Origin: an uncultured Gemmatimonadaceae bacterium
GTDB lineage: Bacteria; Gemmatimonadota; Gemmatimonadetes; Gemmatimonadales; Gemmatimonadaceae
Length of the DNA: 64,000 nt
Assembly (NCBI GenBank): GCA_963790305.1
Contig: CAWBOC010000005.1
Span: forward strand, 192,001-256,000
Direction of reading: 5' to 3'
This document shows positions 31,246 to 48,186 of the stretch, in pieces. The notes under the pieces are model-generated. The model was not told the DNA's origin. It saw only the letters and a program-made list of their open reading frames with translations, and searched no databases. Made by a program: the position numbers and the translations under genes. How positions within the stretch are numbered: position 1 is the first letter of the stretch; each line of letters opens with the position of its first letter.

Positions 31246-31794
<549 letters not shown>

Positions 31795-32640: not shown

Positions 32641-32696
32641 GCCTTCATCCCTGAAACATCACTCCACGGTCGTTCAACTATCTACGAGGCAGACCA

Positions 32697-33041: not shown

Positions 33042-33068
33042 CTCCGACTGCGTGGTTCTCTGCCTTCA

Positions 33069-34059
33069 TCACGGGAGGAAGAGCGTGGTCCTGCCCGCGA
33101 TCGACCTGTTGCCGGCCTCGTCGATCGCGATGACGGTGATTTCGTTGTCTCCGAACACACCATACGCGCTGGGAGTCATGTTCCTGCCGATGGCAGTGTT
33201 CTCGTGCACACCGTTCACGTAGATCTCGTACACGATCACATTCTGAGGCGTCACGGCGTCCGTGGACGCGGTCCACCAGACTTGCATCTCGAGATCGCCG
33301 TAGCCGAAAGCCTGCACGTTTGCTGGCTGGGTCGGCGGCGTCACGTCGCTCCCGTCGTTCACGCTTGGTCGTGACGGTGAATGGTGGGCTGACCGCTGAC
33401 AGGTTGCCGCCTGACTCGTTGACGAAGCGGTCCTTGGCCTGAGCCGTGAACGTGTAGGTGGTCCCCGGCTGGAGCAGGGTGAACGTTCTCGACGTCTCGG
33501 AGACCCAGTGAACCCGCAGTGTGATCTTGACGCCGTCCTTGTTCACCTGATAGGAAATGAACGGGGCGTCGTCCGTCGACGACCAGGCGAGCCCTATGTG
33601 CCTCGTACCCACGCTCGTTACCGTGAAGGCAGGAACCGTCGGTGGTGTGTGGTCCAGTGGAAGCGACACGGTCACCGTGTTGCTGCTCGCCGACTTGTTC
33701 CCGGCCGCGTCCACGGCGTACACCGAGAACGAATAAGTGGCCCCGTTATGCAGGGGCGGATGCGGATACTTCCACGTGACGCTCGTCTGCGTGCCGGGCA
33801 CGGTGATTTCGCGGCCCCAATTGTCGCGGACCCGATACGAAGCGGTGCCGGTCAACGCGTCCCAGGCTAACGAGACACTCCACGATGTGTTGCCGGTCGA
33901 GCGAAGATTCAACGGCCCCGCAGTCGGAGGCTTCTTAGGCCCAGACCTCGCCAGTGCGGGCGAGTCTGTCGCGAGACTCGATGGTGCAGTGGCATCTCGG
34001 CACGCGGCCGCCACGACTAGAATCCCAGCCGTCGTCACACATCTCGCAAATGGACGCAT
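33069..34059 (-). CDS. Fibronectin type III repeat lipoprotein (frameshift near 33365)
   Basis: Lipobox AAAC; three FN3-like units (YSFSVYAVDAAGNKS, YTFTAQAKD, VIAIDEAGNRS); the third is in a shifted frame. Confidence 0.8.
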
Positions 34060-34189
34060 AGAAGCCCCTGGTTCCCGAGGAGATGACTAGCCTCACCGCT
34101 ACCCTTGTGCGGCTACGGGCGACGCTAGCGCCGTCCTGAAGTCTCCGACAACGGGTCTGCGGTGACGGCACCTCACCGGCGGTGAACGC

Positions 34190-35350
34190 ATGAAGGGAAG
34201 AGCCGAAAGCGCACGTGCACTGGCGATCGGGGTGCTGGTGTGCCTCGCAGGATGCTCGCGCACGAGTCAGCCCGCCCGCTCTCACTCGGGCACGCCGCAG
34301 GCACTCGAGGCCATCGTCCAGGACTTTGCGGACCAGCATCGACTGCCCGGTCTTGCCGCCGGGGTCTGGCGGCGCGGCGAGGTCATTCTTCGAATGGGCG
34401 TGGGCCATCAGGCTGGACCCGGGTCGCCACCGATCGATGGGGAGACCGTTTTCCACCTTGCGTCTGTCACCAAGCCGTTCGTCGCGACCGCCGTGATGCA
34501 GCTCGTGGCCGCGGACAAGATGTGCCTCGACTGTCCGGTGCAACGGTATCTGCCGTACTTCTCAATGCAGGGGCCGGGCGCTGAGCGGATCACGATCCGT
34601 CAACTGCTGACCCACACCGCTGGCACGGGGGACACGAGCGACTTCGGCTGGACCAAGCCGGAGTACGACGACGGGGCCGTCGAGCGATACGTTCGGAGCT
34701 TGGCGTCCGCGCGCCTCGAGTTCGTGCCCGGATCCCAGTGGCGTTACAGCAACCGTGGCTTTGACGTGCTCGCGGACGCGATCGCCAAGGCCGACGGGCG
34801 GCCGTTCGAAATAGTCATTCAGCAGCGTATCCTGACTCCGCTGGGCATGCGCCGGAGCACGCTGTTGATGAGCGATATCGACTCCGCCCGAATGGCGCGT
34901 GGTCACCGGCGTGATGGGAGCGCGGTCGGCTACTATCCCTATAACCGCCGCCATGGTGGGAGCTCTACGCTACACTCCACCCTCGATGACATGCTCCAAT
35001 GGGCAGCCGCCAACCTGGGGCGTGGTGCCCTCGATCAGCGGCGAATCCTGCCCGCGTCTGCCTACGACGACCTGTGGCGCCCATATCGGGACATCCGAGC
35101 GACCATCGCCGAGCAGGTGCGCAGGGCGGGCTACGTATTCCCGTACGACAGCCTGGCCATCGGGCTCAGTTGGTTCCTTCCGGTCCAGGAGGGCCGCCAA
35201 CTGGTGTATCACAGTGGCAGCGATCCTGGGTTTGCGAGCAATGTGCTACTCTCTCCGTCGGAACAGATCGGGGTGGTGGTGCTGATCAACGCCAACGGTG
35301 CTGACCCGCGAGCCCTCAGCCGATCTCTGCTCGACGCCGCGCGTCGCTAG
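34190..35350 (+). CDS. Serine hydrolase (class C beta-lactamase family) lipoprotein
   Basis: Lipobox LAGC; ASVTK, LLTHT.G, YSN, YHSG. Confidence 0.9.
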   Translation: MKGRAESARALAIGVLVCLAGCSRTSQPARSHSGTPQALEAIVQDFADQHRLPGLAAGVWRRGEVILRMGVGHQAGPGSPPIDGETVFHLASVTKPFVATAVMQLVAADKMCLDCPVQRYLPYFSMQGPGAERITIRQLLTHTAGTGDTSDFGWTKPEYDDGAVERYVRSLASARLEFVPGSQWRYSNRGFDVLADAIAKADGRPFEIVIQQRILTPLGMRRSTLLMSDIDSARMARGHRRDGSAVGYYPYNRRHGGSSTLHSTLDDMLQWAAANLGRGALDQRRILPASAYDDLWRPYRDIRATIAEQVRRAGYVFPYDSLAIGLSWFLPVQEGRQLVYHSGSDPGFASNVLLSPSEQIGVVVLINANGADPRALSRSLLDAARR

Positions 35351-35384
35351 TAGCCAATCACGGGGCCGAACCAAAGGAGAAGTC

Positions 35385-35807
35385 ATGCGACGTATCGTGG
35401 CGTTATTCTCGACAGGCGTCGTCGCAGCCTGCAGCACCGCTCCAGTTCCTAGCGGTCAATCCCCGCTGACGACAGCCCCGCTCAACCCGTCCGTCGAGTT
35501 TCTCCTCACATCGGCCGCCACTGATTTCCACACCCACCGCCCACCGTTTCCTGTCCGCTTTCGTGATGTGCGCAGTGGCTACGTCATCGCTTCGGATGGG
35601 ACAAGACAGTACAGGTTGTGCGGCGAGTTTTTGCCAGCAGCGGAAAGCGGCAGGACTGAATGGACTCCTTTCGCAACACTCAAGACGTCAGGGTACGAAC
35701 AATGGCTTGGCGCTCAAGCCGAGACCTTCTGCAAGAGATCACCAATGACGTGGGACAAGGAAGATTTGTCGTCCTTGTTGCAAAGGCGCCTTGATTCTCT
35801 GCGATAG
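35385..35807 (+). CDS. Hypothetical lipoprotein
   Basis: AAGGAG RBS; lipobox VAAC; two further Cys residues. Confidence 0.7.
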   Translation: MRRIVALFSTGVVAACSTAPVPSGQSPLTTAPLNPSVEFLLTSAATDFHTHRPPFPVRFRDVRSGYVIASDGTRQYRLCGEFLPAAESGRTEWTPFATLKTSGYEQWLGAQAETFCKRSPMTWDKEDLSSLLQRRLDSLR

Positions 35808-35848
35808 CTAATCGCGACGGTTCAAAGTCCTGATGGCGCCTGTCGCTC

Positions 35849-36871
35849 CTAGAGCGCGCCGCGCAGAATCCGCTCGAGCACTTTCGTATCGAGATTGCCG
35901 CCGGAGAAGATCACGCCGACGCGCATTCCCTTCAGCTGATCACGCAGCTTGATCGCGGCGGCCAGACCGAGCGCGCCCGCTCCCTCGACCATGTTGTGCG
36001 TCAGCGTGAGCACGACGCGAATCGTCTCCGCCATCTCCGCCTCGCTCACGGTCACGAATCCCTCGAGTCCTTCCACCAGCGTCGCGAAGGTGAGCGAGTA
36101 CGGCTGGCGCGTCGCGACGCCTTCGGCAAACGTGTTCGCCCGCTCGGTGCTCAACGGAGTGCGCGCGTGCCACGAGTCATGGATCGCCGGTGCGCCGGCC
36201 GCCTGCGCGCCGTAGACTTTCAGCGCGGGAGCCAGCTCACGCGCCACCGTGAGCGCGCCTACCGACTGCGATCCGCCGCCGACGGCGATCACGATCGCAT
36301 CGAGCCCGCTGGACTGCTCGAGCATCTCCAGGCTCATCGTCGCCGCTCCGGCAATGACGCGCAGATCGTTCGTGGAGTGCGCAACGGCCATGTTCTGCTC
36401 GCGCGCGACGCGCAGCATTACCTCGACGGACTCGTCGTAGTCGCGCCCTTCCTCGATGACGGTGGCGCCCCATCCGCGCATCGCCGCGTTCTTCTCCGGG
36501 TTGTTCCCCACCGGAACGCAGATCGTGGCGCGCACGCCGAGGAGTGACGCACCGTACGCGATCCCCTGGCCGTGATTTCCTGTCAATGCGGCGACGACGC
36601 CTCGGGCACGCTCATCGGCGCTGAGTCCTGTCACGAAGGACAGGCCGTTGCGCACCTTGAAGGAGCACGTCGGCTGATGATTCTCGTGCTTGATCAGGAG
36701 TGACGTGCCGGCGGCCATCCGCGCATCGAGCTGCGGATAGCCGCGCAGCGGCGTCGGCGTCAGGTAGCGCGCGATCCGCTCGCGTGCTCGCTGCACGTCG
36801 TCGAGCGTGATCGGCCATGCCGGCGCCATCGTGCCAAAGGACTTCGGCACGGGCGTCGCTTGCGTGGTCAC
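35849..36871 (-). CDS. PLP-dependent threonine/serine dehydratase or serine racemase-like enzyme (no regulatory domain)
   Basis: KHENHQPTCSFKVRNG, TGNHGQG, VGGGS, EGAGA, SGGN. Confidence 0.9.
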   Translation of the reverse strand: MTTQATPVPKSFGTMAPAWPITLDDVQRARERIARYLTPTPLRGYPQLDARMAAGTSLLIKHENHQPTCSFKVRNGLSFVTGLSADERARGVVAALTGNHGQGIAYGASLLGVRATICVPVGNNPEKNAAMRGWGATVIEEGRDYDESVEVMLRVAREQNMAVAHSTNDLRVIAGAATMSLEMLEQSSGLDAIVIAVGGGSQSVGALTVARELAPALKVYGAQAAGAPAIHDSWHARTPLSTERANTFAEGVATRQPYSLTFATLVEGLEGFVTVSEAEMAETIRVVLTLTHNMVEGAGALGLAAAIKLRDQLKGMRVGVIFSGGNLDTKVLERILRGAL

Positions 36872-36890
36872 GTCGTCACCGCCGCACCGC

Positions 36891-38450
36891 CTACCGGGGT
36901 GTTCCCCCCGCGGCGCGCACCTCGGGCGCCGGCTCCGGCCGGCGCTTGAAGTTCGTCGGCGCGCCGCCGAGATCCATTTGGAGCTCGTCGACCTTGCCCT
37001 GCGCATTGAGGCGGAAGGTCACGAACGACGTTCCGAGTGATCGCGCGCCCCAGCGTGCGCGGAACGTGTCGAAATGCCAGTGCTCCAGCTCGCCCTGAAA
37101 CGCAGGGCCACGATCAATGCGGAGCTTCGCGCTGTCGCCGCGCACTCGAATCTCCCCGTACATGCTGTCGACGTAGACGCCCGCATACTGCGCAAGCGAC
37201 AGCGACGGCTTCGTGTTGGGCACGCGCTCCGCCTCGCGCTTCTTCTGCGCCTCCCGCGCCCGTGCGAGCAGCGAATCGGTCACCCTGAACATCTCCGCGT
37301 TCCAGTCTTTCGCCTTCGGCGTCTTGAGATGCAAATCCCAGAGCTTCTGCATGATCACGTACGGCAATGCACTCTGGCTGATGTTCGTCAGCACCACGAC
37401 GCCGAGCTTTTCCTCGGGCAGCATCGCGACGAGAGCGCTCATTCCATCGATGTTGCCACCGTGCTGCACGACGAGCCGGCCTTCGTAGTCGCTCAGGAAC
37501 CAGCCGAGTCCGTACGCCAGGAGATGCGCTCCGGGATTGATTCGCTTCCAGGCCCCTTCGAGGCGAACGACGGTGTGCGGGGTGTGCATCTCTTCGATCT
37601 GTCGTTCGCTGATGATCTGCTTGCCGCCGTACTTTCCCTTCCCGAGCTGCAGTCGAACCCACTGCGCCATGTCGACGACGTGCGAGTTGATGGAGCCGGC
37701 CGGCGCAATGTTGTCGATGTTGCGCCAGGGGATGACGCGGACCGTGTCGTCAATGTCGGCGTGCGGCGTCGCGACGTCGCGCATCGACGCGAGCTTCTTG
37801 ATGGTTGTGTTGCTCTCCGTCATGCCAAGCGGCGCGAAGATCCGCCGCTCGATGAAGTCATCCCATGTCGTGTTCGCGACCCGTGCCGTGAGCTGCCCGG
37901 CGGCGAGGTACATCAGGTTCTGATAGCCGAACTGTGCCCGGAAACTCCACGACGGCGCGAGGAAGCGCGTGCGACGCATGATCTCATCGCGGTCGAACTC
38001 GCTCCCGTACCAGAGCATGTCGCCGCGGGCGAGCCCGCTGCGGTGACTGAGGAGGTCGCGGATGGTGAGCTCGCGCGAGGCATACGGATCGAAGACGTGA
38101 AAGCCGGTGAGGTACTTTTCGGCCGGATCGTCCCACGCCACCTTCTTTTCGTCGACGAGGAGCGCAACGCCGGCGGCGGTGAACGCCTTCGATGACGAGC
38201 CGATCGCGAATACCGTCCGATCGGTCACGCGGTCCGGCTTCGTGATGTCCTTGACGCCGTACCCCCGCGCGTAGATGACGGAGTCGTTGCGCACGATCGC
38301 GATCGCGACCCCGGGAACCTTCCACGTTTTCCGGGCGGTCTCGACGTAGGCGTCGAGCCCCGGGTACGGCTCGCGGGCCTGAGCGTTCAGGCTGACCGGT
38401 GCGATCAGGACGATCGTGGCCAGCGCATAGACGAATCGTGTGCAAGTCAT
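36891..38450 (-). CDS. Secreted serine hydrolase with DUF3471-like C-terminus
   Basis: Signal peptide; IGSSSK, YQN, HGG. Clear paralog of 12013-13539. Confidence 0.92.
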   Translation of the reverse strand: MTCTRFVYALATIVLIAPVSLNAQAREPYPGLDAYVETARKTWKVPGVAIAIVRNDSVIYARGYGVKDITKPDRVTDRTVFAIGSSSKAFTAAGVALLVDEKKVAWDDPAEKYLTGFHVFDPYASRELTIRDLLSHRSGLARGDMLWYGSEFDRDEIMRRTRFLAPSWSFRAQFGYQNLMYLAAGQLTARVANTTWDDFIERRIFAPLGMTESNTTIKKLASMRDVATPHADIDDTVRVIPWRNIDNIAPAGSINSHVVDMAQWVRLQLGKGKYGGKQIISERQIEEMHTPHTVVRLEGAWKRINPGAHLLAYGLGWFLSDYEGRLVVQHGGNIDGMSALVAMLPEEKLGVVVLTNISQSALPYVIMQKLWDLHLKTPKAKDWNAEMFRVTDSLLARAREAQKKREAERVPNTKPSLSLAQYAGVYVDSMYGEIRVRGDSAKLRIDRGPAFQGELEHWHFDTFRARWGARSLGTSFVTFRLNAQGKVDELQMDLGGAPTNFKRRPEPAPEVRAAGGTPR

Positions 38451-38490
38451 GGCGATCTCGCGGAGACTAGTGAGCGCTTGCTTTCTGAGG

Positions 38491-38661
38491 ACGGCAACGG
38501 CAACAGCAACGACAACGGCTTCTCAACGCAGAGGACGCAGAGGAACTGCCACGGCAAACGTCAAACGGCAAGGCTGTTAACAAAAGCTCCTGCCGTTGTA
38601 GTTCAAGGCGGCAGACCTCTGCGACCTCTGCGTCCTCTGCGTTGAAAAATGCCGTTGCCGT
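38491..38661. repeat. Intergenic palindrome of (CAACGG)n/(ACGCAGAGG)n arms, copy 2
   Basis: ACGGCAACGGCAACAGCAACGACAACGGCTTCTCAACGCAGAGGACGCAGAGG ... CCTCTGCGACCTCTGCGTCCTCTGCGTTGAAAAATGCCGTTGCCGT; same family as 11805-11964. Confidence 0.88.
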
Positions 38662-38700
38662 ATCCGTGCTCCATACGCGTAAATCCGCGGCTGCAGTTCG

Positions 38701-40305
38701 TCAGTTACTGAGCCGGGGCACGACCCAATTCGCGATCTCCCCCATGACATCCGGCCCGATCTTCCCGCTCGGCAGTCGCACGTATCCCGCGGGATTCCCG
38801 ATCGAATCAGGGAGAAAGAGGTGATTCCGATTGGGGAGAACACGGACGGTCACGTCGCGGTTTCCGGCTTGCCGCAGGGCCGCGCCGATCGCTTCCGCCT
38901 GATCGGCCGTCACCTGCTGATCGGTCGCGCCCTGCAGAACCAGCACCGGCACCTTGACCTTCCGGATCGTCGGCAGTGGCTCGTACGCCAGGAAAAACTT
39001 CATCCACGGCGGCGGCGCGGCGGTCGTGTCGGCGGCAATCCTCGAGGCCGCGAATGCAGAGTCGCGTTTGGCCGGTGCGATCGAGGAATCATGCTCGACG
39101 CCATACCGAATCTGATGGTCGAGAACTTCCCGCCCGCGCTTCGACGGTCCGGCCATGAGGACGATCCCCGCCAGCTTCGGATCTGTCGCGCCCACCATGG
39201 GCGCGATCATCGCTCCCTCGCTGTGGCCGAGCAGGGCGATGCGCGCCGGATTGACGTCAGGCCGCGCGCGGAGCCACGCGATCGCGGCGCGCACGTCGTC
39301 GGCAAAGTCGGCTGACGACGCCTTCGCGAAGTCACCGGTGGACTCGCCGGTGCCACGGTCGTCGAGGCGCAGGACGGCAATGCCGCGCCTGCCTAACGTG
39401 TCGGCGATTTGCCGGAACGGGCGGAAGCCCGGGACGATCGGGATGCTTTCGTCGCGGTCCTGCGGTCCGCTGCCCGAGATCGTGATGACGACGGGAAGAC
39501 GACCGCTCGCGCTCCCAGGAATCGTCAGCGTACCTGCCAGCACGTGTCCGGACGGCGTGGGGATGCGAACGTGCTCGGCGCGATAGGGCGCCCCCGCTGG
39601 GGCGGAGTAGTCCGGCTTCCCGAGCGCGAGCCGGCGAACGGCCTCCCCCTCGACCCGCTCGACGACGAGCCGTTGCGCGGGAACGTGCGCGCGAAGGATG
39701 CGCGTGCCGCGCAGGGCGAGGTGGGTCTGTGAGGGACCGATCGTCACGATCACCGAGTCGGGTGACACGCGACGCGCCGTCGCCGACAGCGTCTGGCCGC
39801 CGGCAGCGAGCAGCACTGGGAAGGTGACGCTGTCGCGGTTCGCGCCGCTCATGCGCTCCAGCGCCACTTCGGTCATGCCGAAGGAGCTGTTGAGCATCAG
39901 GAACGCGTCCGCCTTCGAGGGAAGACGCTGGGTCTGCGTGCTGCCGCCGGCCGTGATCTCGGCGATGCCGGTGTCCGCGACGAGCCGCAGCCTGACCGAC
40001 TGAAGGGCGGACGCGTCCGGCCCGCTGCCCGCCGGGTATGCGACGAGATACAGCTCGCCAATGCGGCCCGCCGCCTCACGAGTCGCGAGGTAAGTGAAGC
40101 GAGGCTGCCCCTGCAGCAGGACCTCGCCGGAAATTCCGCCGGTTGACGAGTTGAATCGCTCGATGCCGATCGTGTCGGTGCCCATGCGAAACACGAACGC
40201 CGCCTCGCCGGCAGTCTGCGCGCTGGCGGCCGACGACACGACCGCCAGTGCGCAAAGAACCTTACGCGCTACGCGTAGTACGTGGTCCGCGCGCTTCTCA
40301 AACAT
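38701..40305 (-). CDS. Secreted alpha/beta hydrolase with extra N-terminal beta-rich domain
   Basis: PDYSAP.GAPY, GSGPQDRDE, GHSEGA, RNHLF. Paralog of 13540-14586. Confidence 0.88.
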   Translation of the reverse strand: MFEKRADHVLRVARKVLCALAVVSSAASAQTAGEAAFVFRMGTDTIGIERFNSSTGGISGEVLLQGQPRFTYLATREAAGRIGELYLVAYPAGSGPDASALQSVRLRLVADTGIAEITAGGSTQTQRLPSKADAFLMLNSSFGMTEVALERMSGANRDSVTFPVLLAAGGQTLSATARRVSPDSVIVTIGPSQTHLALRGTRILRAHVPAQRLVVERVEGEAVRRLALGKPDYSAPAGAPYRAEHVRIPTPSGHVLAGTLTIPGSASGRLPVVITISGSGPQDRDESIPIVPGFRPFRQIADTLGRRGIAVLRLDDRGTGESTGDFAKASSADFADDVRAAIAWLRARPDVNPARIALLGHSEGAMIAPMVGATDPKLAGIVLMAGPSKRGREVLDHQIRYGVEHDSSIAPAKRDSAFAASRIAADTTAAPPPWMKFFLAYEPLPTIRKVKVPVLVLQGATDQQVTADQAEAIGAALRQAGNRDVTVRVLPNRNHLFLPDSIGNPAGYVRLPSGKIGPDVMGEIANWVVPRLSN

Positions 40306-41647
40306 CGGGAATGTTGGGATTGTTGTTTCGCTCGACGGCCGGCAACGGGAAGCAGCGCTGGTCGCCGTAGAGTCCACCGCGCGGGAACGTCGCACCCACG
40401 GCGGGGAGCAGCGGCAGGTTGAGGCGCCGCATGTCGCCCAGCCGGTGGCTCTCGAGGAACAGCTCGCGTCGCCGCTCCTCGCGTACCTGCGCGAGCACCT
40501 CGGCTTGCGTCTTTCCCGTACCGTCATACGCCGGGATGCCCGCCGCCGTGTGCAGCGCGTTGATGATGGTGACGGCCCCGGTCAGATCGTTGGCCAGTGC
40601 TTTCGCCTCCGCCTCGATCAGGCGCGCTTCGTTCGTCCGCGCGAACGGAATCGGTGACCCGAGGTTCGCGTACTTCCGCTGTTGGCGGACGATCGTGGCG
40701 TTATCGGCGCCCACGGCGCCCGTGTTAAAGACGGGCACGCGCGGGTCCAGCACACCGGCGAATCGCAGGCTGTCGAACGTCGGGTCGACGGAGGAGAAGT
40801 TTGTCGAGCCAGTGCCTCCGCTGTGCGCAAAGACAATGTTCTGCTGTCGGTTCGTTCCCGTAACGAGCGCGACGGCGTTCACGGCAAAGCCAGCCGGAAT
40901 CTGCGCCGCGAGAGCGCCCGCCTGCGCAACGAGCGTGAGATTCGGATCGTTCGGGTTGGCGGGCGTCCCTGCGTACGCGAGGTTCAGCACCGTGCGCGCC
41001 AGTCCCAGCCGCGCGAGTCTGAGCGTGATGCTGTCGTTGGCGGTTGTGGCGGCGGTGATCGCCGTGTTGAATCGCGTCTGCGCTTCACCGAAGAGCTGCT
41101 CCGGCGTCAGCTCCGGTCCCACGTTGATCGCCGCGCTGCACATCCCTTCGCCTAACAGAACCAGGCTGTAGCCCGCGTACGCCGCGGCCTGTCCGATGAG
41201 CTGCGTGCGGTTCACACCGGGCACCATCTCCGCATCCGTCCACTCCTGGAGTCGCGCGAGGACCGTGTCGGCTGACGCGCGAGCGACCGAGAGCGACGTG
41301 TACACGCCCGGGAGCTGCGCGCCACCACAGCCGTCCGCGTACGGGCCGGTGAGCGGGTGGCTGCGTCGGTCGTAGTTGTCCTGCGCTGCGTTCGCGAAGG
41401 CATTGACGAGCTCATCGCCGAGCAACCCTGCGGCAGTCGTATACCGGAAGAGCGCGCACTCGAAATCTCCGATCGCGCCATTGACGAGCAGCGTCGCGTT
41501 TCGCGGAACGTACGCGTCGTTGGCGAGGATCTGCGACGGGTTGTCCTGCTCGAGATTGGTGAGATCATCGCAGGCGAATAGGGCGACGGCTAGCGGCAAC
41601 ACCACCAGCGCGTACGACGCCTCTCTCCCTCGAAAAAGGGTGCGCAT
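40298..41647 (-). CDS. RagB/SusD-family nutrient-uptake lipoprotein
   Basis: Lipobox LFAC; EARLIEAEA, ERRRELFLE..R..D.RR, FPLP..E..NNPN. Confidence 0.92.
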   Translation of the reverse strand: MRTLFRGREASYALVVLPLAVALFACDDLTNLEQDNPSQILANDAYVPRNATLLVNGAIGDFECALFRYTTAAGLLGDELVNAFANAAQDNYDRRSHPLTGPYADGCGGAQLPGVYTSLSVARASADTVLARLQEWTDAEMVPGVNRTQLIGQAAAYAGYSLVLLGEGMCSAAINVGPELTPEQLFGEAQTRFNTAITAATTANDSITLRLARLGLARTVLNLAYAGTPANPNDPNLTLVAQAGALAAQIPAGFAVNAVALVTGTNRQQNIVFAHSGGTGSTNFSSVDPTFDSLRFAGVLDPRVPVFNTGAVGADNATIVRQQRKYANLGSPIPFARTNEARLIEAEAKALANDLTGAVTIINALHTAAGIPAYDGTGKTQAEVLAQVREERRRELFLESHRLGDMRRLNLPLLPAVGATFPRGGLYGDQRCFPLPAVERNNNPNIPDV

Positions 41648-41649
41648 GA

Positions 41650-44600
41650 TCAGAATCCGAGGTTGAGGGACACGACGAACTGCGTGAGCGCGGGCAAGAG
41701 ACCTTGATCCTGCGGAAAGGACCCCTGCGTCGGTGGGACGCCCGTGTAGCGAACCTCGGGATCTGGTCCGTTGAAGTCGGTCCAGGTTGCGAGGTTGCGT
41801 CCCGCCACGGTCAGCGCCGCGGTCGCAATGCCGGCTCGACTCACCCAATTCTCGGGCAGCCGATACGTCGCGGAGATCTCGCGCAGCTTCACGAACGAGG
41901 CGTCCTCAATGAACTGATCCCCCACGCCAGCGGTCGTCGATGAGGGGGCAATCCCCGCGAGGTACGCCGTCGAGTACCGTTCGGGGAAATGGCGCGCTTC
42001 GCAGACGCCGAAGGCGCAGGCGTTCGCGGCGTTCGCGTTCTGTAAGTTGTGACCCCGCTTGAAGTCCACCATGCCGTACAGCGTTAGGCGCTGGCCGATC
42101 GAGAACGTGTTCGTCACATTCCCCAGGACCTTCGGCGTCTGCGTCCCGACGAAAATGGGAAGGGCTTGCGCGCAGGGGACCGGCGTACCACCGGATGGCC
42201 CGGCCACGCACAAGATGTTGGTGATCGCGTGAGTCGCGGGATCGCGCGTCGCGCTGGCAATGCGCTTCGTCCACCAGCCCGCGATCGGGTAGCCCTCGAC
42301 GTTACGAATGGCCCCAGCACCGGACGGGACGCCGCCCATGTCTTCGATTCGGTCCTTGTTGGTGCTGACGTTCCCGCCGATCTCCCACGCGAAGCGGTCG
42401 AGCGTGATCGCTCTGAAATTCGCCTGAAGCTCGATCCCACTGCCGCTCGTCTCGCCAATGTTGACCGTCTGATCCCCGGCGAACCCACCCAATGGCGCGA
42501 GCTGCCTCGTTAGGATCGCGTCCTTCGTCCGCCTCGTGTAGTAGGTGAAGTCCAGGCTCAGGCGATCGAAGAGGCCCGCCTCGAAACCGGCTTCCCACTC
42601 CGTCCCGCGCTCCGGCTTGAGATCCGGATTCCCGAGCGAGCCCGGAGTCACGCCCGGTATCCCGTTGGCGCGCGGTGCATTGGTCACCGTGCGAAGCGCA
42701 ACAAACGTGTTCGGCTGCTGGCCGGATTGTCCGTATGCGGTGCGGAGCTTCAGGGTATTGACGACATTGCCGAATCCGCTCCAGAACGACTCCTCGCTGA
42801 TCACCCACGCGGCACTGACCTTCGGGTACGTGACCCAGTCGAGGTCTTCGCCGAACGCCGAGTTGTTGTCGACACGCACGCCGGCGGTGAGGAAGAGGCG
42901 GTCGTTCCACCCAAACTGCTGCTGCCCGTAGACACCCATGGTCGTGTTGACGATGAGCTCTTGCGTCGGCGTACCGGCGACTGTCGTCCCCGAGACGGTT
43001 TCAACGCCTGGCGCGGGGAACCGCTGACCCGACAGCGCGCTGTTCTTGAGCTGCTTTCGCACCCACTGTCCGCCAACCGACGTCGCCGACGAGATCGCTG
43101 GGGTAATCGCGAACGTCGCCGTGCCCGAGTAGTCGCCCGTGATGTAGCTGTGGTTGCGCAGCGTCTGCGTGATGCGCCCATCAGCGGCGGCTGCTCCAAC
43201 AAGCGCCGCCACGAATGGCCTGAGCTCAGGCGGGGCGAATCGCTCGAGCGCCCGGCTGTCGTCCGAGGTGTAGTCGAGACCGAGCGTGAGCCGGTGGGCG
43301 AACCAGCTGGCCGGCCGGTGGTTCAGTGTCGTCCCACCGGTGAAGCGGTTGATGTCCTGAGCATTGTCGTAGAGCTGCTGCGGGACTTCCGGCGGCGCGA
43401 AGCCGAACCCGCGATTGGCGGGAAAGACGAGCGGATGGCCAATCGACATTCCCAGCAACGGTGAAACGCCCCCGTCGGTGCCGAGGTGAAGGTTGCTGCG
43501 CACAAAATGCAGGGTGGCCCCAATGTCGATCTTGTCGGTCGCCGCGGTGCGGACGTTCGCGTGGGCGCTGAACGTCTTTCCGAAGTTGTTAGGCTCGATT
43601 CCTTCATCGTCGTTGTACGTGCCCGACAGGTAGTAGGTCAGTTGCTCGCGTCCGCCCGAGAGCGCGAGGTGATAGGATTGCGTGCGGCCGGTCGAGAACA
43701 CCGGCGTCCCGCGATCCTCTTCCTGCTGGATGGGATTCCAGGGAACGATCTCACCCGCGGTGTTGCGAGCGTAGTTGGTGGTGATGCGTCCCTCGGGATC
43801 CCGGAACCATTGCGCGCCCTGCTCGGTGCGCACCGTCAACCGTGCCGGCCCCGCAACGCCTTTCTTGGTGATGATCTGGATCACCCCGTTCGCCGCTTCC
43901 GTCCCGTAGATGGTCGCCGCCGCCGGACCTTTGATGATCTCAATGTCCTGGATGTCCTCCGGCGCGATGTCGTTCAGCCGTGACGCGACCTGCGAGTTTT
44001 GCGCGCCGAGCGCGCCGGCACTCGGCGGCCCTTGATTCACGGCGTTGTTCACCCGAACGCCGTCGATGTATACGATCGGCTCGTTGGAGAGCGATAAACT
44101 CGATCGGCCGCGTATCCATACCGTCGGCCCGGAGCCGACACGCCCCGAGTTGGGCGCGATGATGACGCCCGGAGCGCGCGACTGAAGCAGCGTGCCCAGG
44201 TTCGGCGCCGCTGAACGCTCGAGCTCCTGGGCGGCATCGATCGTTGCCACGGTGTTTCCAAGGCTTCGGCGCCGCTCCCCGATACCCGTGCCCGTCACGA
44301 CGACTTGATCGAGCTCGACGGCCGCCTCGGTGAGAACGATGCGAATGGCGATTTCGCCGACTCGCGCGACTTGCGTCGCCGGCTGAAAGCTCAGTCGGCG
44401 CACCTCGAGCGTGACCTGGTCGCCGGAAAGTCCGGTGATCCGGAAGCGGCCGGCCGCGTCGGTCGCGGCGCCGAAGGTCGTTCCCTGGACGCGGACATTC
44501 GCGCCTTCGACTGGGGTCATCACGCCGGCTTTGACGACCACGCCGGCGACCGTCCCCTGTTGTGCGGCGGCAATGACCGGCGCGAGAACGACGAGTGAGG

Positions 44601-44673
44601 CGATGCCCAACGTGGCGCGCCACCGTGAGTTGGCCGGGTGGCCGACAGCGCGGATCGACGAGAGAATGCGCAT
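41650..44673 (-). CDS. SusC/RagA-family TonB-dependent outer membrane transporter
   Basis: N-terminal carboxypeptidase-regulatory-like domain, VVVTG TonB box, IEIIKGPAAATIYGTEAANGVIQIITK, LGNPDLKPE, SFVKLREIS, terminal F. Confidence 0.95.
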   Translation of the reverse strand: MRILSSIRAVGHPANSRWRATLGIASLVVLAPVIAAAQQGTVAGVVVKAGVMTPVEGANVRVQGTTFGAATDAAGRFRITGLSGDQVTLEVRRLSFQPATQVARVGEIAIRIVLTEAAVELDQVVVTGTGIGERRRSLGNTVATIDAAQELERSAAPNLGTLLQSRAPGVIIAPNSGRVGSGPTVWIRGRSSLSLSNEPIVYIDGVRVNNAVNQGPPSAGALGAQNSQVASRLNDIAPEDIQDIEIIKGPAAATIYGTEAANGVIQIITKKGVAGPARLTVRTEQGAQWFRDPEGRITTNYARNTAGEIVPWNPIQQEEDRGTPVFSTGRTQSYHLALSGGREQLTYYLSGTYNDDEGIEPNNFGKTFSAHANVRTAATDKIDIGATLHFVRSNLHLGTDGGVSPLLGMSIGHPLVFPANRGFGFAPPEVPQQLYDNAQDINRFTGGTTLNHRPASWFAHRLTLGLDYTSDDSRALERFAPPELRPFVAALVGAAAADGRITQTLRNHSYITGDYSGTATFAITPAISSATSVGGQWVRKQLKNSALSGQRFPAPGVETVSGTTVAGTPTQELIVNTTMGVYGQQQFGWNDRLFLTAGVRVDNNSAFGEDLDWVTYPKVSAAWVISEESFWSGFGNVVNTLKLRTAYGQSGQQPNTFVALRTVTNAPRANGIPGVTPGSLGNPDLKPERGTEWEAGFEAGLFDRLSLDFTYYTRRTKDAILTRQLAPLGGFAGDQTVNIGETSGSGIELQANFRAITLDRFAWEIGGNVSTNKDRIEDMGGVPSGAGAIRNVEGYPIAGWWTKRIASATRDPATHAITNILCVAGPSGGTPVPCAQALPIFVGTQTPKVLGNVTNTFSIGQRLTLYGMVDFKRGHNLQNANAANACAFGVCEARHFPERYSTAYLAGIAPSSTTAGVGDQFIEDASFVKLREISATYRLPENWVSRAGIATAALTVAGRNLATWTDFNGPDPEVRYTGVPPTQGSFPQDQGLLPALTQFVVSLNLGF

Positions 44674-44744
44674 TGGCGTGGGACGGGTAGGAGGTCGGCC
44701 AGCGCGCGGCGGGCGGCCGGGCTGGCTCCATCGCTGCGACCAAT

Positions 44745-44756
44745 ACTGTATACAGT
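44745..44756. promoter_or_regulatory. Putative GntR-type operator ACTGTATACAGT
   Basis: Perfect 12-bp palindrome with TGTATACA core in the divergent susC/GNAT intergenic region. It lies downstream of a minus-strand TTGCGC-N18-TAATAT promoter-like element (44800-44771). Confidence 0.6.
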
Positions 44757-44868
44757 GCGGCGTACACGCTATATTACGCCTCCCGCGCGACGAAGCGCAA
44801 GACAAGTTTCTGGACGTCCGCCCGCCATCCAGCTCCTTTTCCTCGCCCTTACAGCGCGCGAAGACCAC

Positions 44869-45756
44869 ATGCAGCGAGCCCGCACTCCCGCGGACCCCGA
44901 GACGCACGACAACGCCCTGCGCGGACCGGATGGCATCACCCTGCGCCGCGTGTCGGGACTCCGCGAGTATCAGGAGTGTCTGGCCATTCAGGAAGAGACC
45001 TGGGGGAACGGGTTCCGGGAAATCGTGCCGCCGGTGATCCTCATGGTCGCCCAGAAGCTCGGGGGGGTGTGCGCCGGCGCGTTCGCTCCCGACGGCCGCA
45101 TGCTCGGCTTCGTGTTCGGGATGACCGGGCCCCTCAACGGCCGGCTCGTGCACTGGTCGGACATGTTGGCCGTCCGCGCCGACGCTCGGGGCGGCCACAT
45201 TGGGCAGCGACTCAAGCTGTATCAGCGCGATCTCGTGCGCGCCGTGGGCGTCGAGACCATGCACTGGACCTTCGACCCGCTCGTCGCCCGAAACGCTCAC
45301 CTCAATCTCACGCGCCTCGGCGCACGAGCCATCGAATACGTCCCCGACATGTACGGAACCAACACGGGCAGTCCGATACACGGCGCCCTCCCCACCGATC
45401 GCGTGATCGTCGCCTGGGATCTCACCAGACCGCCTGATCCCGTCGAGCGCACGTCGCGCCTCGGTCTGCTGGTGAACCCGCCCGCGGCCGACGGTCTGCC
45501 GTCTCTCAACGGCCTGCTCGACGCGTCGGTCGTTCGCATCGCCATCCCCACCGACCTGGAGGCGGAACCGGGCGAGCGGCGCGCCGTCTGGCGTCAGGTG
45601 ACCCGCGCGGCGTTCGAGTCGTACCTCGGTCGCGGGTACGAGGTGGTCGGCTTCCGCCGCGGTCAGGGAGACGAGCTGCCATCCTACGAGTTGTCGCCAC
45701 GCGGATTGCCATCCTCGACGGCTGTCCCGACTGAATTGGTACATGCTGCGCGTTGA
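44869..45756 (+). CDS. GNAT-family acyltransferase (D-amino acid N-succinyltransferase-like)
   Basis: HWSDMLAV, IGQRLKLYQR, WTFDPLVARNAHLN..RLGA, LPTDR...W. Coupled to the OSBS/NSAR gene. Confidence 0.85.
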   Translation: MQRARTPADPETHDNALRGPDGITLRRVSGLREYQECLAIQEETWGNGFREIVPPVILMVAQKLGGVCAGAFAPDGRMLGFVFGMTGPLNGRLVHWSDMLAVRADARGGHIGQRLKLYQRDLVRAVGVETMHWTFDPLVARNAHLNLTRLGARAIEYVPDMYGTNTGSPIHGALPTDRVIVAWDLTRPPDPVERTSRLGLLVNPPAADGLPSLNGLLDASVVRIAIPTDLEAEPGERRAVWRQVTRAAFESYLGRGYEVVGFRRGQGDELPSYELSPRGLPSSTAVPTELVHAAR

Positions 45757-46894
45757 GCGGATCTCGCTGCGCGAGATCCGGCTCCCGCTGCGCGAGCCTT
45801 TCCGGATCTCGAGTGGGGTGGTCGACGAGCGTCGCATCGCGCTCCTCGAGATCGTCGACGCCGACGGGGTCGCCGTATGGAGCGAGTGTGTCGCCGGCGA
45901 GCACCCGAACTACAGCTCCGAGACGATCGATACCGCATGGCACGCGATCACCGAGTGGGTTGCCCCGCGCGTGCTCGGGCGGTCGTTCAGCGATGTGCGT
46001 GACGTCTTCCCGGCACTCGAGCGCGATTTCCGCGGACACCTGATGGCGAAAGCCGCGGTCGAGATGGGAGTTTGGATCCTGGCCGCCGAACGGCTCGGTA
46101 CCTCGCTGGCCAATCTGCTCGGCGGCACCCGATCCCAGATCGCCACCGGCATCTCGCTCGGCATCCAGCCCTCGCCCGAGGTGCTCGTAGAAAAAGCGCG
46201 CGCGGCGTTGGCGTTAGGCTATCGCAAGGTGAAGATCAAGATCCAGCCGGGCGCCGACATCGCCTACGTCGGCGCCGTCCGCGTGGCGCTCGGGCCAACG
46301 GCGCCGCTGATGGCCGACGCGAACAACGCCTACACCATCGCCGACGCCGAGCACCTCGCCCGCCTCGACGCCCTCGAGCTGATGATGATCGAGCAGCCGT
46401 TTGCGTTCGATGATCTCGTGCAGCACGCCGCCCTTCAGCGCCGCCTGACGACGCCGATCTGTCTCGACGAGTCCATCACCTCGGTCGACCGCGCGCGCGA
46501 CATGGCGGCGCTCGGCAGCGGACGCATCGTCAACATCAAGCCGGGACGCGTCGGAGGATTCACAGCGTCACTCGCCATTCACGACTTCTGCGAGACGAAG
46601 GGGATTCCCGTCTGGTGCGGCGGTATGCTCGAGAGCGGTATCGGACGCGCCTGCAACGTGGCGCTGGCGTCGCTCCGCAACTTCACCAAGCCGGGCGACG
46701 TGAGCCCGAGTGCGCGGTACTGGGAGCGGGACATCGTGACGCCGGAATGGACGATGAACGCCGACGGAATGGTTCGCGTCCCGCTCGACCGGCCCGGCCT
46801 GGGCGTGGATGTGGACCTGGGACGCGTGGACGATCTCACCGTCCGAGAAGCGAAGCTCACGGCTCCGAACCGGGCGGCGACCGCTCGAGTTTAG
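45743..46894 (+). CDS. menC: o-succinylbenzoate synthase / N-succinylamino acid racemase (enolase superfamily)
   Basis: KIK, DAN, IEQP, LDE, NIKPGRVGG, WCGGMLESG, PGDVS; resembles the NSAR/OSBS subfamily. Confidence 0.88.
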   Translation: MLRVERISLREIRLPLREPFRISSGVVDERRIALLEIVDADGVAVWSECVAGEHPNYSSETIDTAWHAITEWVAPRVLGRSFSDVRDVFPALERDFRGHLMAKAAVEMGVWILAAERLGTSLANLLGGTRSQIATGISLGIQPSPEVLVEKARAALALGYRKVKIKIQPGADIAYVGAVRVALGPTAPLMADANNAYTIADAEHLARLDALELMMIEQPFAFDDLVQHAALQRRLTTPICLDESITSVDRARDMAALGSGRIVNIKPGRVGGFTASLAIHDFCETKGIPVWCGGMLESGIGRACNVALASLRNFTKPGDVSPSARYWERDIVTPEWTMNADGMVRVPLDRPGLGVDVDLGRVDDLTVREAKLTAPNRAATARV

Positions 46895-46951: not shown

Positions 46952-47788
46952 GTGTCCGAGCTACCGACCTACACCGCCACGCGATACCTGCAGCCGCTCC
47001 GTGAAGGCGGATCGCTACCCGCTGTGGTCGATACCGACGGGGGCGGGCTGTTCGTGGTGAAGTTCCGCGGAGCAGGCCAGGGCGCCAAAGCGCTCGTGGC
47101 CGAGCTCATCGTCGGAATGTTGGCCCGCGCGCTGGGCCTGCCGATACCGAGCCTCGCGCTCATCGAGGTGCCCGCGTCGTTCGGGCGCAGCGAGCCCGAC
47201 TCCGAGATCCAGGATGTCCTGCGAGCCAGCCACGGCGTCAACGTCGGCCTTCGATACCTGGACGGCGCATTCAACTACGACAACAGCGCCGCCGGCGAGC
47301 TCATCACGGCCGAGCTGGCCACGCGTGTGGTCTGGCTGGACGCGTACGTGACGAACCCCGATCGCACCCATCGCAATCCCAACGTGCTGATCTGGGAGCG
47401 CCGCCCCTGGCTCATCGACCACGGCGCAGCGCTCTACGCGCATCACGATTGGCCGACCGTCGACGACGCACGTACCCTCACCCCTTTTCCGCGAATCCGC
47501 GAGCACGTGCTGCTCGGCCGCAGCGCGAGTCTCGAGGCGACCGACGCCGACCTCGCCGCGACGCTCACCGATGAATGCATCACGCAAGTCTTGATGAACG
47601 TGCCCGACGCCCTGCTCCTCGATCCCACGCGCGGGCAGGAATTCACCGCGGGAGACGACGCACGCGCTCGTTACTTCGACTACCTGACGCGACGGCGCGA
47701 TGGACCGCGCGTCTTCGTGCAGGAAGCGGCCCGCGCGCGCATTCACATGCGCGACACGCCACCGCACCGCCTGTCGGCGCGTCGATGA
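46952..47788 (+). CDS. HipA-like kinase
   Basis: PLREGGSLP, VVKFRGAGQG, NPDRT.RNPN, WLIDHGAAL. Confidence 0.85.
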   Translation: MSELPTYTATRYLQPLREGGSLPAVVDTDGGGLFVVKFRGAGQGAKALVAELIVGMLARALGLPIPSLALIEVPASFGRSEPDSEIQDVLRASHGVNVGLRYLDGAFNYDNSAAGELITAELATRVVWLDAYVTNPDRTHRNPNVLIWERRPWLIDHGAALYAHHDWPTVDDARTLTPFPRIREHVLLGRSASLEATDADLAATLTDECITQVLMNVPDALLLDPTRGQEFTAGDDARARYFDYLTRRRDGPRVFVQEAARARIHMRDTPPHRLSARR

Positions 47789-48186
47789 TGCCTCGATCGC
47801 GCTCGGTTTCCTACGACTTCGCGGTGCTGCGCGCCGTGCCACATCCGCATATCGGCGCGTTCGTTCCGGTGGGTGTGGTGCTGCACGCGCGCACCGTGGA
47901 CTACCTGGGGATGCGCTCCCTCACCGACATCGACGAGCTTCGAGCGCAGGTGCCCGAGGTGGACGCGGAGCTCCTCGCGCGGTACCTGCGATCCGTGCGC
48001 GCCATCTGCGACGGCGATGAATCCGCCGGCCCAGTAGCGCTGACACCTCCCTCCGAGCGCTTTCATTGGCTCACGGCGCCGCGGTCGGACGTCATCCAGA
48101 GCTCGCCGATCCACGAGGGCGTGTGCTCCGATCCGGAGCGGGAGCTGGATGCGCTGTTCAGGACCTACGTGAGGCGGGGCGCCTGA
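47785..48186 (+). CDS. DUF3037-family protein
   Basis: YDFAVLRAVP, VGVVL, ERFHWLTAPRS.VIQ.S..H.G; ATGA overlap with the kinase gene. Confidence 0.88.
   Translation: MMPRSRSVSYDFAVLRAVPHPHIGAFVPVGVVLHARTVDYLGMRSLTDIDELRAQVPEVDAELLARYLRSVRAICDGDESAGPVALTPPSERFHWLTAPRSDVIQSSPIHEGVCSDPERELDALFRTYVRRGA

Follow-up and report, generated by a model that had tools for sequence, protein, structure and literature searches.

A SusC/SusD importer operon divergent from a putative D-to-L amino acid conversion pair in a Gemmatimonadaceae genome: a candidate locus for the use of D-amino-acid peptides

We analysed a 64,000-nucleotide stretch of DNA (hereafter the window; about 65% G+C) from an uncultured Gemmatimonadaceae bacterium (assembly GCA_963790305.1, contig CAWBOC010000005.1, positions 192,001 to 256,000), and in particular a divergent locus at positions 35849-46894 of this window. 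On one strand, the locus carries an operon encoding a SusC/SusD-type outer membrane importer (SusCD), two exported hydrolases and a pyridoxal phosphate (PLP) enzyme. On the other strand, it carries a GNAT-fold acyltransferase and an enolase that we read as an N-succinylamino acid racemase (NSAR). The importer and the enzyme pair recur together in several genera of Gemmatimonadota, and in a genome of the same genus they are contiguous with a second cluster of peptidase genes that ends in an M20D aminoacylase. We lean towards the view that this is a regulated utilisation locus for D-amino-acid peptides, which joins two known modules in a new way. With the same moderate confidence, we regard the divergent locus as one half of a regulated super-locus for the scavenging of such peptides. 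To judge from the gene context, the most plausible substrate would be the stem peptides of peptidoglycan from dead bacteria.

Gene content of the divergent locus

The gene map was drawn from a listing of open reading frames (ORFs), from Pfam and NCBIfam matches, and from N-termini read in the translations (Table 1). A previous reading of the letters of this DNA (the sequence-only reading) had named a susC-susD-alpha/beta hydrolase-serine hydrolase-PLP enzyme series, devoid of glycoside hydrolases, in a probable non-Bacteroidota host. All five genes are present where it had placed them, with corrected starts, and the host does belong to another phylum, the Gemmatimonadota. From SusC on, the minus strand carries SusC, SusD, the alpha/beta hydrolase, the S12-family serine hydrolase and the PLP enzyme, the stop of SusC lying 3 bases from the start of SusD. 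Two of the ORFs are longer than their genes: that of the PLP enzyme is open to 37006, the homologous part beginning at Met 36829, and that of the alpha/beta hydrolase is open to 40527.

The plus strand carries the GNAT-fold gene and then the NSAR/o-succinylbenzoate synthase (OSBS)-subfamily enolase, whose start is overlapped by the stop of the GNAT gene. As also proposed previously, this pair diverges from the SusC operon, here across a spacer of 222 bp. The SusC frame stays open for 397 further codons upstream (to 45837), antisense across the whole GNAT gene. This stretch lies outside the SusC gene; it is open because of the high G+C content and may lead gene callers astray.

In none of the ORFs tested between 33 and 50 kb of the window did Pfam detect a glycoside hydrolase family. 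The SusCD operon and the close orthologous loci examined are, by Pfam, likewise devoid of glycoside hydrolase, lyase and carbohydrate esterase families. In the strict sense, a polysaccharide utilisation locus (PUL) co-encodes carbohydrate-active enzymes (CAZymes) with susCD; this operon encodes none.

Directly downstream of the NSAR gene, a HipA_2-like kinase gene is followed by a DUF3037 gene with a 4-base overlap (46952-48186). This pair was considered as a member of the system and rejected, being found beside GNAT-NSAR only in the same-genus genome (1 of the 134 loci described below).

Enzymes of the putative D-to-L conversion

Among proteins of solved structure, the enolase is most similar to the N-acylamino acid racemases of Thermus, Deinococcus and Amycolatopsis (2zc8, E = 1.3e-91; 1r0m; 1sja). 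Its NIKPGRVGG motif aligns with NIKIGRVGG in the enolase of a Lysinibacillus operon, with a Lys and, three residues on, an Arg. In the Amycolatopsis enzyme, the pair K263/R266 is described as important for NSAR activity, R266 being a second-shell Arg (10.1101/2022.03.03.481873). From the motif and the Lysinibacillus alignment, rather than from an alignment to 1sja, the Lys and Arg of the window enolase are the predicted equivalents of this pair, and we read the protein, on its sequence, as a putative NSAR.

We then searched the whole genome (4.31 Mb in 13 contigs, 94% complete) for the two routes of menaquinone synthesis. The best genome matches to MenD (38.3 bits, cut-off 244) and to MenB (163 bits, cut-off 342.7) are below their cut-offs, and, in agreement with the sequence-only reading, no other men gene was found by Pfam in the window. 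The same reading had raised the futalosine route as the possible source of menaquinone, and its genes are indeed present: MqnC is over its cut-off (472.9 bits) with an MqnE-like neighbour, and the MqnA/MqnD family PF02621 has two matches over cut-off. Menaquinone would therefore be made via the futalosine route. As there is no men pathway, the enolase is not needed as an OSBS.

A second enolase gene of the genome (G000:C9:272600-273847; L209:6601-7848) scores 201.8 bits with TIGR01928, for a cut-off of 200.65, and its product is 39% identical to the window NSAR. Its neighbours (two upstream, one downstream) match no NCBIfam model at E ≤ 1e-15; genes for a pyruvate kinase and a transaldolase lie further upstream.

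The sequence libraries say little about the GNAT protein. Pfam gave nothing on the long ORF at default thresholds and only Acetyltransf_7 (E = 0.18) on the trimmed protein, and neither NCBIfam nor the PDB sequences gave any match. Its homologs are numerous: 3834 of 8000 scored candidates have E ≤ 0.001, many of them being named "predicted GNAT superfamily acetyltransferase", and the homologs comprise 3936 cluster representatives. An AlphaFold2 model built from 60 sequences reached a pLDDT of 90.7. In Foldseek, its first ~185 residues match GNAT amino-acid N-acyltransferases (PA4866, YncA and the PAT-type phosphinothricin acetyltransferases), and the C-terminal ~100 residues form an extra domain. 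The identity of the protein is thus settled by its predicted fold and not by the sequence libraries, and we consider it a candidate D-amino-acid N-succinyltransferase.

The third enzyme would be the M20D aminoacylase, a candidate N-succinyl-L-amino acid desuccinylase. Its gene lies 37 kb from GNAT-NSAR in this assembly. No second close copy exists in the genome, where the one further M20-like match has 37% identity.

The grouping of these three proteins with the known GNAT-NSAR-M20 route, put forward in the sequence-only reading, is supported by comparison with an M20-GNAT-menC operon of Bacillota. The Lysinibacillus and Deinococcus loci were found by a protein search of plasmid records with the window GNAT. 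Each window protein aligns over its full length to its Lysinibacillus counterpart: 43% identity for the NSAR (E = 8e-113), 24% for the GNAT (E = 3e-22) and 27% for the M20 (E = 1e-32). On plasmid pMP1 of Deinococcus radiodurans, the order is menC, binding protein, GNAT, this last protein being 36.6% identical to the window GNAT.

The SusCD importer and the hydrolases of its operon

SusC has the CarboxypepD_reg, plug and barrel domains in Pfam. It is over the cut-off of the transporter model (Table 1) and below that of the SusC signature model TIGR04057 (39.7 bits, cut-off 46.2). For SusD, searches against PDB sequences gave only weak C-terminal SusD matches and no RagB match. Its AlphaFold2 model (pLDDT 89) retrieves members of the SusD superfamily in Foldseek (TMq 0.52-0.70), among which glycan-binding proteins including the levan-binding BT1762, RagB (5cx8, rank 18), ButD and BT2263 rank together. 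This fold search does not separate peptide from glycan binders, and it is the gene context that favours peptides as the ligand class.

Family S12 is characterised by the motifs SxxK, YxN and HxG, and SSSK, YQN and HGG are visible in the translation of the S12 hydrolase of the operon (36891-38450). Among proteins of solved structure, this hydrolase is closest to Pab87 of Pyrococcus abyssi (2qmi, E = 4e-33). Pab87 prefers D-Ala-p-nitroanilide, strips terminal D-Ala from muropeptides, and acts as a D-aminopeptidase and DD-carboxypeptidase (PMC2651629). The S12 hydrolase is by its sequence a candidate D-stereospecific peptidase.

The alpha/beta hydrolase has an S9/S15/S33-like catalytic C-terminal half and an uncharacterised N-terminal part of ~230 aa; at its position, close orthologous loci carry a peptidase with PD40 and S9 domains instead. 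The PLP enzyme, encoded by the last gene of the SusC operon, scores 283.7 bits with NF004771, under the cut-off of 317. Its best solved relatives are 6lut (a probable serine racemase), IlvA and 1v71, and it resembles serine racemases and threonine dehydratases about equally.

Conservation of the linkage, starting from the GNAT

Among 201 sampled genomes of Gemmatimonadota, 80 have a GNAT match, and we fetched ~20 kb around the best match in the best-scoring 60. We added the best 80 of at least 597 matches from a scan of contigs, nearly all from Gemmatimonadota. After removal of 6 duplicates, 134 unique loci (2.24 Mb) were obtained. Neighbours were counted by tblastn with the window proteins and with proteins from related loci. 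Expected counts, a rough yardstick, were calculated for an equal length of DNA from the gene density of this genome.

NSAR was found in 117 of the 134 loci and the M20 ortholog in 69, in 64 of which it is downstream on the same strand. The other partners are less frequent: Amidohydro_3 (31 loci, ~2.6 expected), GntR/FCD regulator (29, ~1.0), PF00144+DUF3471-like proteins (23; best-labelled tblastn hits of the window S12 or its cluster paralog), SusC (22, ~6.2), SusD (17, ~2.6), amino-acid permease (16, ~6.2), VanX-type M15 domain (8, ~0.5), M19 (7, ~1.0), class-A beta-lactamase-like (7, ~0.5) and S13 DD-carboxypeptidase (4, ~1.0). SusC is divergent and at most 1.6 kb from the GNAT in 9 of the 134 loci (8 of the 115 with at least 4 kb upstream). 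From these counts, the conserved core is therefore GNAT-NSAR(-M20), SusCD being a recurrent minority partner. The alpha/beta hydrolase and the PLP gene, the latter being lineage-specific, are local add-ons.

The neighbours that recur include several families associated with D-amino-acid peptides. A PBP4-type S13 D-Ala-D-Ala carboxypeptidase stands beside the GNAT or SusC in three loci (L055, L061, L126; Pfam/NCBIfam), and fusions of PF00144 with M15 (VanX, D-Ala-D-Ala dipeptidase) occur in four (L149, L184, L187, L191). An S15 peptidase follows SusD in L046, a tricorn-like S41 protease is present in L061, and an amino-acid permease adjoins the M20 in L149 and L186. In addition, GntR/FCD regulators and amino-acid permeases are among the neighbours in the GNAT loci that bear SusCD.

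Conservation of the linkage, starting from SusD

We also searched the 201 genomes from the side of the importer. SusD has matches at E ≤ 1e-30 in 51 of them (G157 included). Outside this genome, the eight top-ranking SusD orthologs (49-91% identity; G171, G092, G131, G031, G125, G165, G111 and G077) all lie 3-14 kb from a GNAT gene on the same contig; the two that rank after them come from genomes (G170 and G126) in which the GNAT has no match. In total, SusD and GNAT lie within 14 kb of each other in 11 of the 34 genomes holding both (this genome, G000, included), in at least 8 genera of 2 families. The sequence-only reading had made its proposal depend on conservation of the linkage. The linkage does recur in several genera, the divergent and adjacent form being that of a minority of GNAT loci.

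Twenty SusD neighbourhoods were fetched and annotated, and two of them interleave the two modules. In G077 (L186), a co-directional array runs GNAT-NSAR-M20-permease-Amidohydro_3-SusC-SusD-M23-Amidohydro_3-S12-S15; its second Amidohydro_3 is 76% identical to that of the window (8887-10569) and its S12 is 54% identical to the second S12 of the window (12013-13530). In G131 (L183), the array runs NSAR-permease-SusC-SusD-S12-unknown-S9 peptidase-GNAT, opposite a GntR gene. Moreover, SusC and SusD accompany the PF00144-M15 fusion in L184, L187 and L191. The first two of these also carry GntR and S9 peptidase genes and L184 an S12 gene; L191 has a permease instead. The S9 peptidase comes after SusD in L184 and L187, and three genes downstream of it in L183; orthologs of the second S12 follow SusD in L184, L185 and L186.

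The distant SusD paralogs (≤45% identity) have other neighbours, such as amidohydrolases, gamma-glutamyltranspeptidase, GHL10 and 3-keto-disaccharide hydrolase. The company of D-peptide enzymes is therefore specific to this SusCD clade.

A second cluster and a contiguous super-locus

The window carries a second cluster on the minus strand, from the M20D gene to a gene for an exported S15 peptidase, with an M23 peptidase gene divergent from it (Table 1). This cluster includes a paralog of each hydrolase of the SusCD operon. The second alpha/beta hydrolase corresponds to the catalytic half of the first one: its ortholog in G171, a genome of the same genus, shows a 51% match to residues 232-533 of the first enzyme (38701-40305).

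In G171, both clusters are on one contig (L043). NSAR and GNAT diverge from SusC-SusD-alpha/beta hydrolase-S12-PLP, then comes the M23 gene on the opposite strand, and the contig continues contiguously with S15-GntR-alpha/beta hydrolase-S12-M19-Amidohydro_3-permease-M20. The M23 gene thus stands between the PLP and S15 genes in G171, and it has an 89% ortholog in L211. Compared with G171, the window has ~17.3 kb extra (18533-35848) between the M23 and PLP genes; either the super-locus was split in the window by an insertion, or it was joined in G171 by a deletion. As the two clusters are contiguous in G171, the window M20 is therefore the end of one super-locus and not an unrelated distant gene. 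This contiguity, together with the position of its orthologs behind GNAT-NSAR in nearly half of the GNAT loci, upholds the earlier suggestion that this M20 could supply the desuccinylase step.

The permease and S15 genes, both interrupted by an apparent frameshift in the window, are intact in G171. Neither frameshift site is a homopolymer run, so that gene decay and sequencing error are indistinguishable here. An apparent S15-GntR fusion ORF (14621-17254) was rejected: the frameshifted S15 gene runs open into the GntR gene.

The additional segment 18533-35848 encodes a 942-aa double amidohydrolase (PRK09061, 558.6 bits, with an Xaa-Pro dipeptidase-like C-terminus), an Nramp protein and an FMN-dependent dehydrogenase. 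It also encodes a third PF00144 protein, an APH kinase, YCII, DUF3224, an AraC/GyrI regulator, RibD_C, a glyoxalase, ABM, an fn3/Big protein, an AmpH-like PF00144 lipoprotein (34190-35350) and a small lipoprotein. Elsewhere in the window, an unrelated cluster for hexuronate catabolism (53299-61359, minus strand) encodes UxuA, an SDR protein, a major facilitator superfamily (MFS) transporter, a PfkB kinase, a KDPG aldolase, a member of the mannitol-dehydrogenase family and UxaC.

Regulation

The GntR/FCD regulator of the second cluster is 57-64% identical to regulators beside the GNAT or SusC in six of the seven relatives compared (L126, L127, L149, L164, L183 and L187), and 54% in the seventh (L194). 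The spacer between SusC and GNAT contains a perfect 12-bp palindrome, ACTGTATACAGT, upstream of SusC, whose core TGTATACA has only 5 sites in the 4.31-Mb genome. Within -500 to +60 of the start, this core was found for 11 of the 35 SusC genes with a full upstream region. It was found in 7 of the 9 SusC orthologs of at least 47% identity; in the two without it (L183 and L186), SusC is internal to a longer array. In the S15/M23 spacer (17341-17364), there are related half-sites, ATACAGTAT and TGTACACA. A composite motif, ATACAGT-N(3-14)-GTACAC, occurs three times in the genome, two of these occurrences being in the SusC/GNAT and S15/M23 spacers, and the same motif is kept in G171. The palindrome is, as a sequence motif, a candidate operator of the GntR/FCD regulator, and the motifs taken together are suggestive of one regulon.

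Another core site (G000:C2:27832; L205:5033) lies in the divergent spacer between the gene for a second GntR/FCD copy on contig C2, 56% identical to that of the window, and an intact amino-acid permease gene, and this regulon may extend to it. The other core sites (in a TetR/unknown spacer, between two genes without family, and inside a gene) show no clear tie to this regulon and were set aside. The third composite site (C5:389964) was treated as a chance occurrence: few genes are called there, and no match to the query set lies nearby. A sigma-70 promoter scan of the SusC/GNAT spacer gave 0 sites and was uninformative, as was a terminator scan of 35600-38800 (3 sites vs. 2.3 expected).

Finally, the 250-bp spacer between the alpha/beta hydrolase and S12 genes of the SusCD operon consists of a long inverted repeat, resembling a repetitive extragenic palindrome (REP) or a miniature inverted-repeat transposable element (MITE). 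Its arms are GGCAACGGC and CCTCTGCG, and its predicted RNA fold has -121.5 kcal/mol (z = -7.2). A second copy is in an intergenic spacer of the second cluster (11736-12012). We counted 27 occurrences of the motif shared by both copies in this genome; in G171 there are dozens, frequently located where contigs end.

Table 1. Features of the window discussed in the text (positions in the window; bit scores followed by the cut-off where given)
Feature	Position	Strand	Evidence
M20D aminoacylase	6359-7540	-	PF01546+PF07687; TIGR01891 326.7 bits
Amino-acid permease, split by apparent frameshift near 8142-8147	7558-8824	-	tblastn: two pieces, frames -3 and -1
Amidohydro_3 metallo-amidohydrolase (PRK09061-like)	8887-10569	-	NF006560 197.8 bits, under cut-off 340
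M19 membrane dipeptidase	10566-11735	-	PF01244 256 bits
Second PF00144+DUF3471 S12 hydrolase	12013-13530	-	Pfam
Second alpha/beta hydrolase, paralog of catalytic half of 38701-40305	13540-14586	-	Pfam
GntR/FCD transcription regulator	14621-15355	-	PF00392+PF07729
Exported S15 peptidase (CocE/NonD, X-Pro dipeptidyl-peptidase family), apparent frameshift near 15662-15696	15418-17254	-	
M23 peptidase, divergent from second cluster	17413-18510	+	PF01551
PLP enzyme, fold-type II, serine/threonine dehydratase or serine-racemase-like; no signal peptide	35849-36829	-	PF00291 214.8 bits
PF00144+DUF3471 S12-family serine hydrolase; signal peptide	36891-38450	-	PF00144 225 bits; PF11954 71.7 bits
REP/MITE-like long inverted repeat, between alpha/beta hydrolase and S12 genes	38451-38700	.	
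Alpha/beta hydrolase; signal peptide	38701-40305	-	Pfam Hydrolase_4, Peptidase_S15, Peptidase_S9
SusD/RagB-family surface lipoprotein, 449 aa	40298-41647	-	PF07980; lipoprotein signal ending LFAC
SusC/RagA-type TonB-dependent transporter, 998 aa	41650-44646	-	TIGR04056 466 bits, cut-off 368.25
Divergent SusC/GNAT spacer, 222 bp	44647-44868		
Perfect 12-bp palindrome ACTGTATACAGT, upstream of SusC	44745-44756	.	
GNAT-fold acyltransferase, 295 aa	44869-45756	+	AlphaFold2 model and Foldseek
NSAR/OSBS-subfamily enolase	45743-46894	+	TIGR01928 323.3 bits, cut-off 200.65

Proposed function and alternative explanations

We propose the following scheme for the use of D-amino-acid peptides. The surface lipoprotein SusD and the TonB-dependent barrel SusC would bind oligopeptides and take them up, as RagAB does. 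The exported S12 hydrolases, the alpha/beta-fold S9/S15-type peptidases and the M23 peptidase would trim them, the amino-acid permease would carry the products over the inner membrane, and the cytoplasmic M19 dipeptidase and Amidohydro_3 enzymes would complete hydrolysis. The released D-amino acids may then be N-succinylated by the GNAT, racemised by the NSAR and desuccinylated by an L-specific M20D. The GntR/FCD regulator probably controls both divergent promoters via the ACTGTATACAGT palindrome. A recurrent theme of the related loci supports D-peptides as the substrate: S13, VanX-type M15, M23 and S12 enzymes are found there again and again. In a wider form, the proposal is that of a conserved, GntR-controlled non-glycan "PUL" of Gemmatimonadota, in which SusCD-based use of stem peptides or other D-amino-acid peptides would feed GNAT-NSAR-M20; this form is a possibility that we entertain tentatively, without leaning towards it.

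Several observations weigh against this scheme. SusCD beside the GNAT is a minority arrangement, most GNAT-NSAR(-M20) loci being without SusCD, and the PLP enzyme (3 of the 134 loci) and the window alpha/beta hydrolase (1 of the 134) are not conserved parts. In ten genomes, a SusD ortholog (at least 45% identity) occurs without any GNAT match, so the two modules are separable. The expected counts use only the densities of this genome, and the related genomes are non-independent. In Foldseek, RagB is no better a match to the SusD model than glycan-binding SusDs are. The PF00144 and alpha/beta hydrolase families include esterases and beta-lactamases; neither S12 protein reaches an NCBIfam model (all matches are far under the cut-offs), and the alpha/beta hydrolase has esterases, along with S33-like hydrolases, as its closest relatives of solved structure. 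The Amidohydro_3 protein, if it were an N-acyl-D-amino-acid deacylase, would oppose the succinylation step. In addition, we defined the operator motif only once the data had been inspected, and the permease and the S15 peptidase are frameshifted in this assembly, through decay or sequencing error.

These points bear on three other explanations. According to the first one, the SusCD operon would be a general importer and degrader of L-oligopeptides similar to RagAB, GNAT-NSAR being adjacent through a shared role in amino-acid nutrition and a shared regulator, and D-amino acids being a side stream. RagAB does import ordinary peptides (10.1101/755678). The S9, S15, tricorn-like and M19 peptidases of related loci act, as families, on L-peptides, the PLP enzyme resembles L-Ser/Thr dehydratases, and the SusD orthologs in genomes without a GNAT match fit this explanation as well. 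However, the families that recur have D-specific roles (S13 DD-carboxypeptidase, VanX-type M15, M23, S12), and the closest SusD orthologs are those linked to a GNAT, the more distant paralogs being in other contexts. We consider this explanation unlikely.

The second explanation is that the locus serves the uptake and degradation of antibiotics and similar compounds: non-ribosomal peptides, lipopeptides, depsipeptides or beta-lactam-like molecules. Its S12 and alpha/beta hydrolases would then be D-stereospecific resistance peptidases or esterases, and GNAT-NSAR-M20 would salvage the D-residues set free. D-stereospecific S12 resistance peptidases against non-ribosomal peptides exist, the PF00144 proteins weakly match class C beta-lactamase and esterase models, and both the esterase relatives of the alpha/beta hydrolase and the class-A beta-lactamase-like genes of seven GNAT loci would be compatible with such a role. 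On the other hand, the DD-carboxypeptidase, the VanX-type dipeptidase and the M23 peptidase point to D-Ala-D-Ala and cell-wall cross-links and not to secondary metabolites. Furthermore, no efflux or resistance regulator is conserved with the locus, but a nutrient-type GntR/FCD regulator and an amino-acid permease are. A resistance locus appears quite improbable in view of these associations.

Lastly, in a phylum rich in peptidases, the SusCD operon and GNAT-NSAR might have come to lie side by side by accident and have unrelated functions, with a glycan or another polymer as the possible ligand of SusCD. This is very improbable: the genome has 12 SusC-like and about 18 PF00144 genes, so that some neighbours are expected by chance, direct adjacency is found in only 9 of the 134 loci, and a glycan ligand is compatible with the SusD fold search, but the linkage appears from both directions in at least 8 genera of 2 families, the co-directional arrays of L183 and L186 interleave both modules, orthologous SusC genes share an upstream palindrome that has only 5 sites in the genome, and the search for CAZyme families in the operon and its close orthologs gave none.

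Comparison with known systems

Almost all that is understood of SusCD systems concerns the import of glycans in Bacteroidota; for peptides, the best-studied case is RagAB of Porphyromonas gingivalis. Like the PULs of Bacteroidota, the locus described here has a susC-susD tandem followed by exported hydrolases and a local regulator. In contrast to them, its operon lacks CAZymes and encodes hydrolases of peptidase/amidase type, and its regulator is of the GntR/FCD type and not a hybrid two-component or SusR/ECF one. PULs have also been predicted in Gemmatimonadetes by PULDB, and tandems of susCD are on record in this group (PMC5753385). With RagAB (10.1101/755678), our locus shares a SusC/SusD-type pair, the lack of glycoside hydrolases and a proteolytic context. 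The two differ in phylum, have very low sequence similarity, and only here is the importer tied to D-specific peptidase families and to a D-to-L route.

The GNAT-NSAR-M20 route is irreversible, and it was reportedly defined by enzyme assays in Geobacillus kaustophilus by Sakai and colleagues in 2006. The composition of this D-to-L pathway is described in a later study (10.1101/2022.03.03.481873). The same three protein families are found here, GNAT and NSAR overlapping as an operon pair; the likeness was established with Lysinibacillus and Deinococcus proteins and not with G. kaustophilus sequences. What differs is the host, a member of Gemmatimonadota, the position of the M20 gene 37 kb away, and the connection to SusCD, exported peptidases and a GntR/FCD regulator. 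A parallel for such a coupling is the operon on pMGMM7 of Lysinibacillus fusiformis (peptide MFS transporter-M20-GNAT-menC), in which, by annotation, a peptide transporter gene accompanies the three enzymes. That host is however Gram-positive, the transporter is an inner-membrane MFS protein and not SusCD, and no exported S12 or S13 enzyme is encoded in the 10.8 kb examined.

A further parallel is the neighbourhood of Pab87, the best solved relative of the window S12 hydrolase. In Pyrococcus abyssi, Pab87 is encoded beside a D-aminoacylase, a PLP enzyme and a peptide transporter; its authors suggested that bacterial cell-wall debris serves as food (PMC2651629). The locus of P. abyssi is archaeal, with a cytoplasmic enzyme and an ABC importer, and is without the GNAT-NSAR-M20 set.

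No paper linking SusCD to NSAR, D-amino-acid conversion or peptidoglycan was found by title or start of abstract, in a coverage without most subscription journals, and the literature surveyed names no natural source of D-amino acids for the GNAT-NSAR-M20 route. A recurrent link between SusCD and these three enzymes would extend the SusCD paradigm to D-amino-acid peptides outside Bacteroidota, and it proposes where the substrates of NSAR come from. If the proposal is true, the non-glycan "PUL" would be the natural substrate supply of a pathway known so far only from enzyme assays. As Gemmatimonadota are an abundant but little-studied phylum of soils, the locus would also provide a molecular handle on the turnover of D-amino acids and necromass in soil, and it offers genes with which the recycling of bacterial cell-wall debris and D-amino acids there can be tested. 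The component modules, i.e. the three-enzyme route, the susCD tandems of Gemmatimonadetes and a SusCD-type pair that imports peptides, are all known from other systems; it is their joining that is new.

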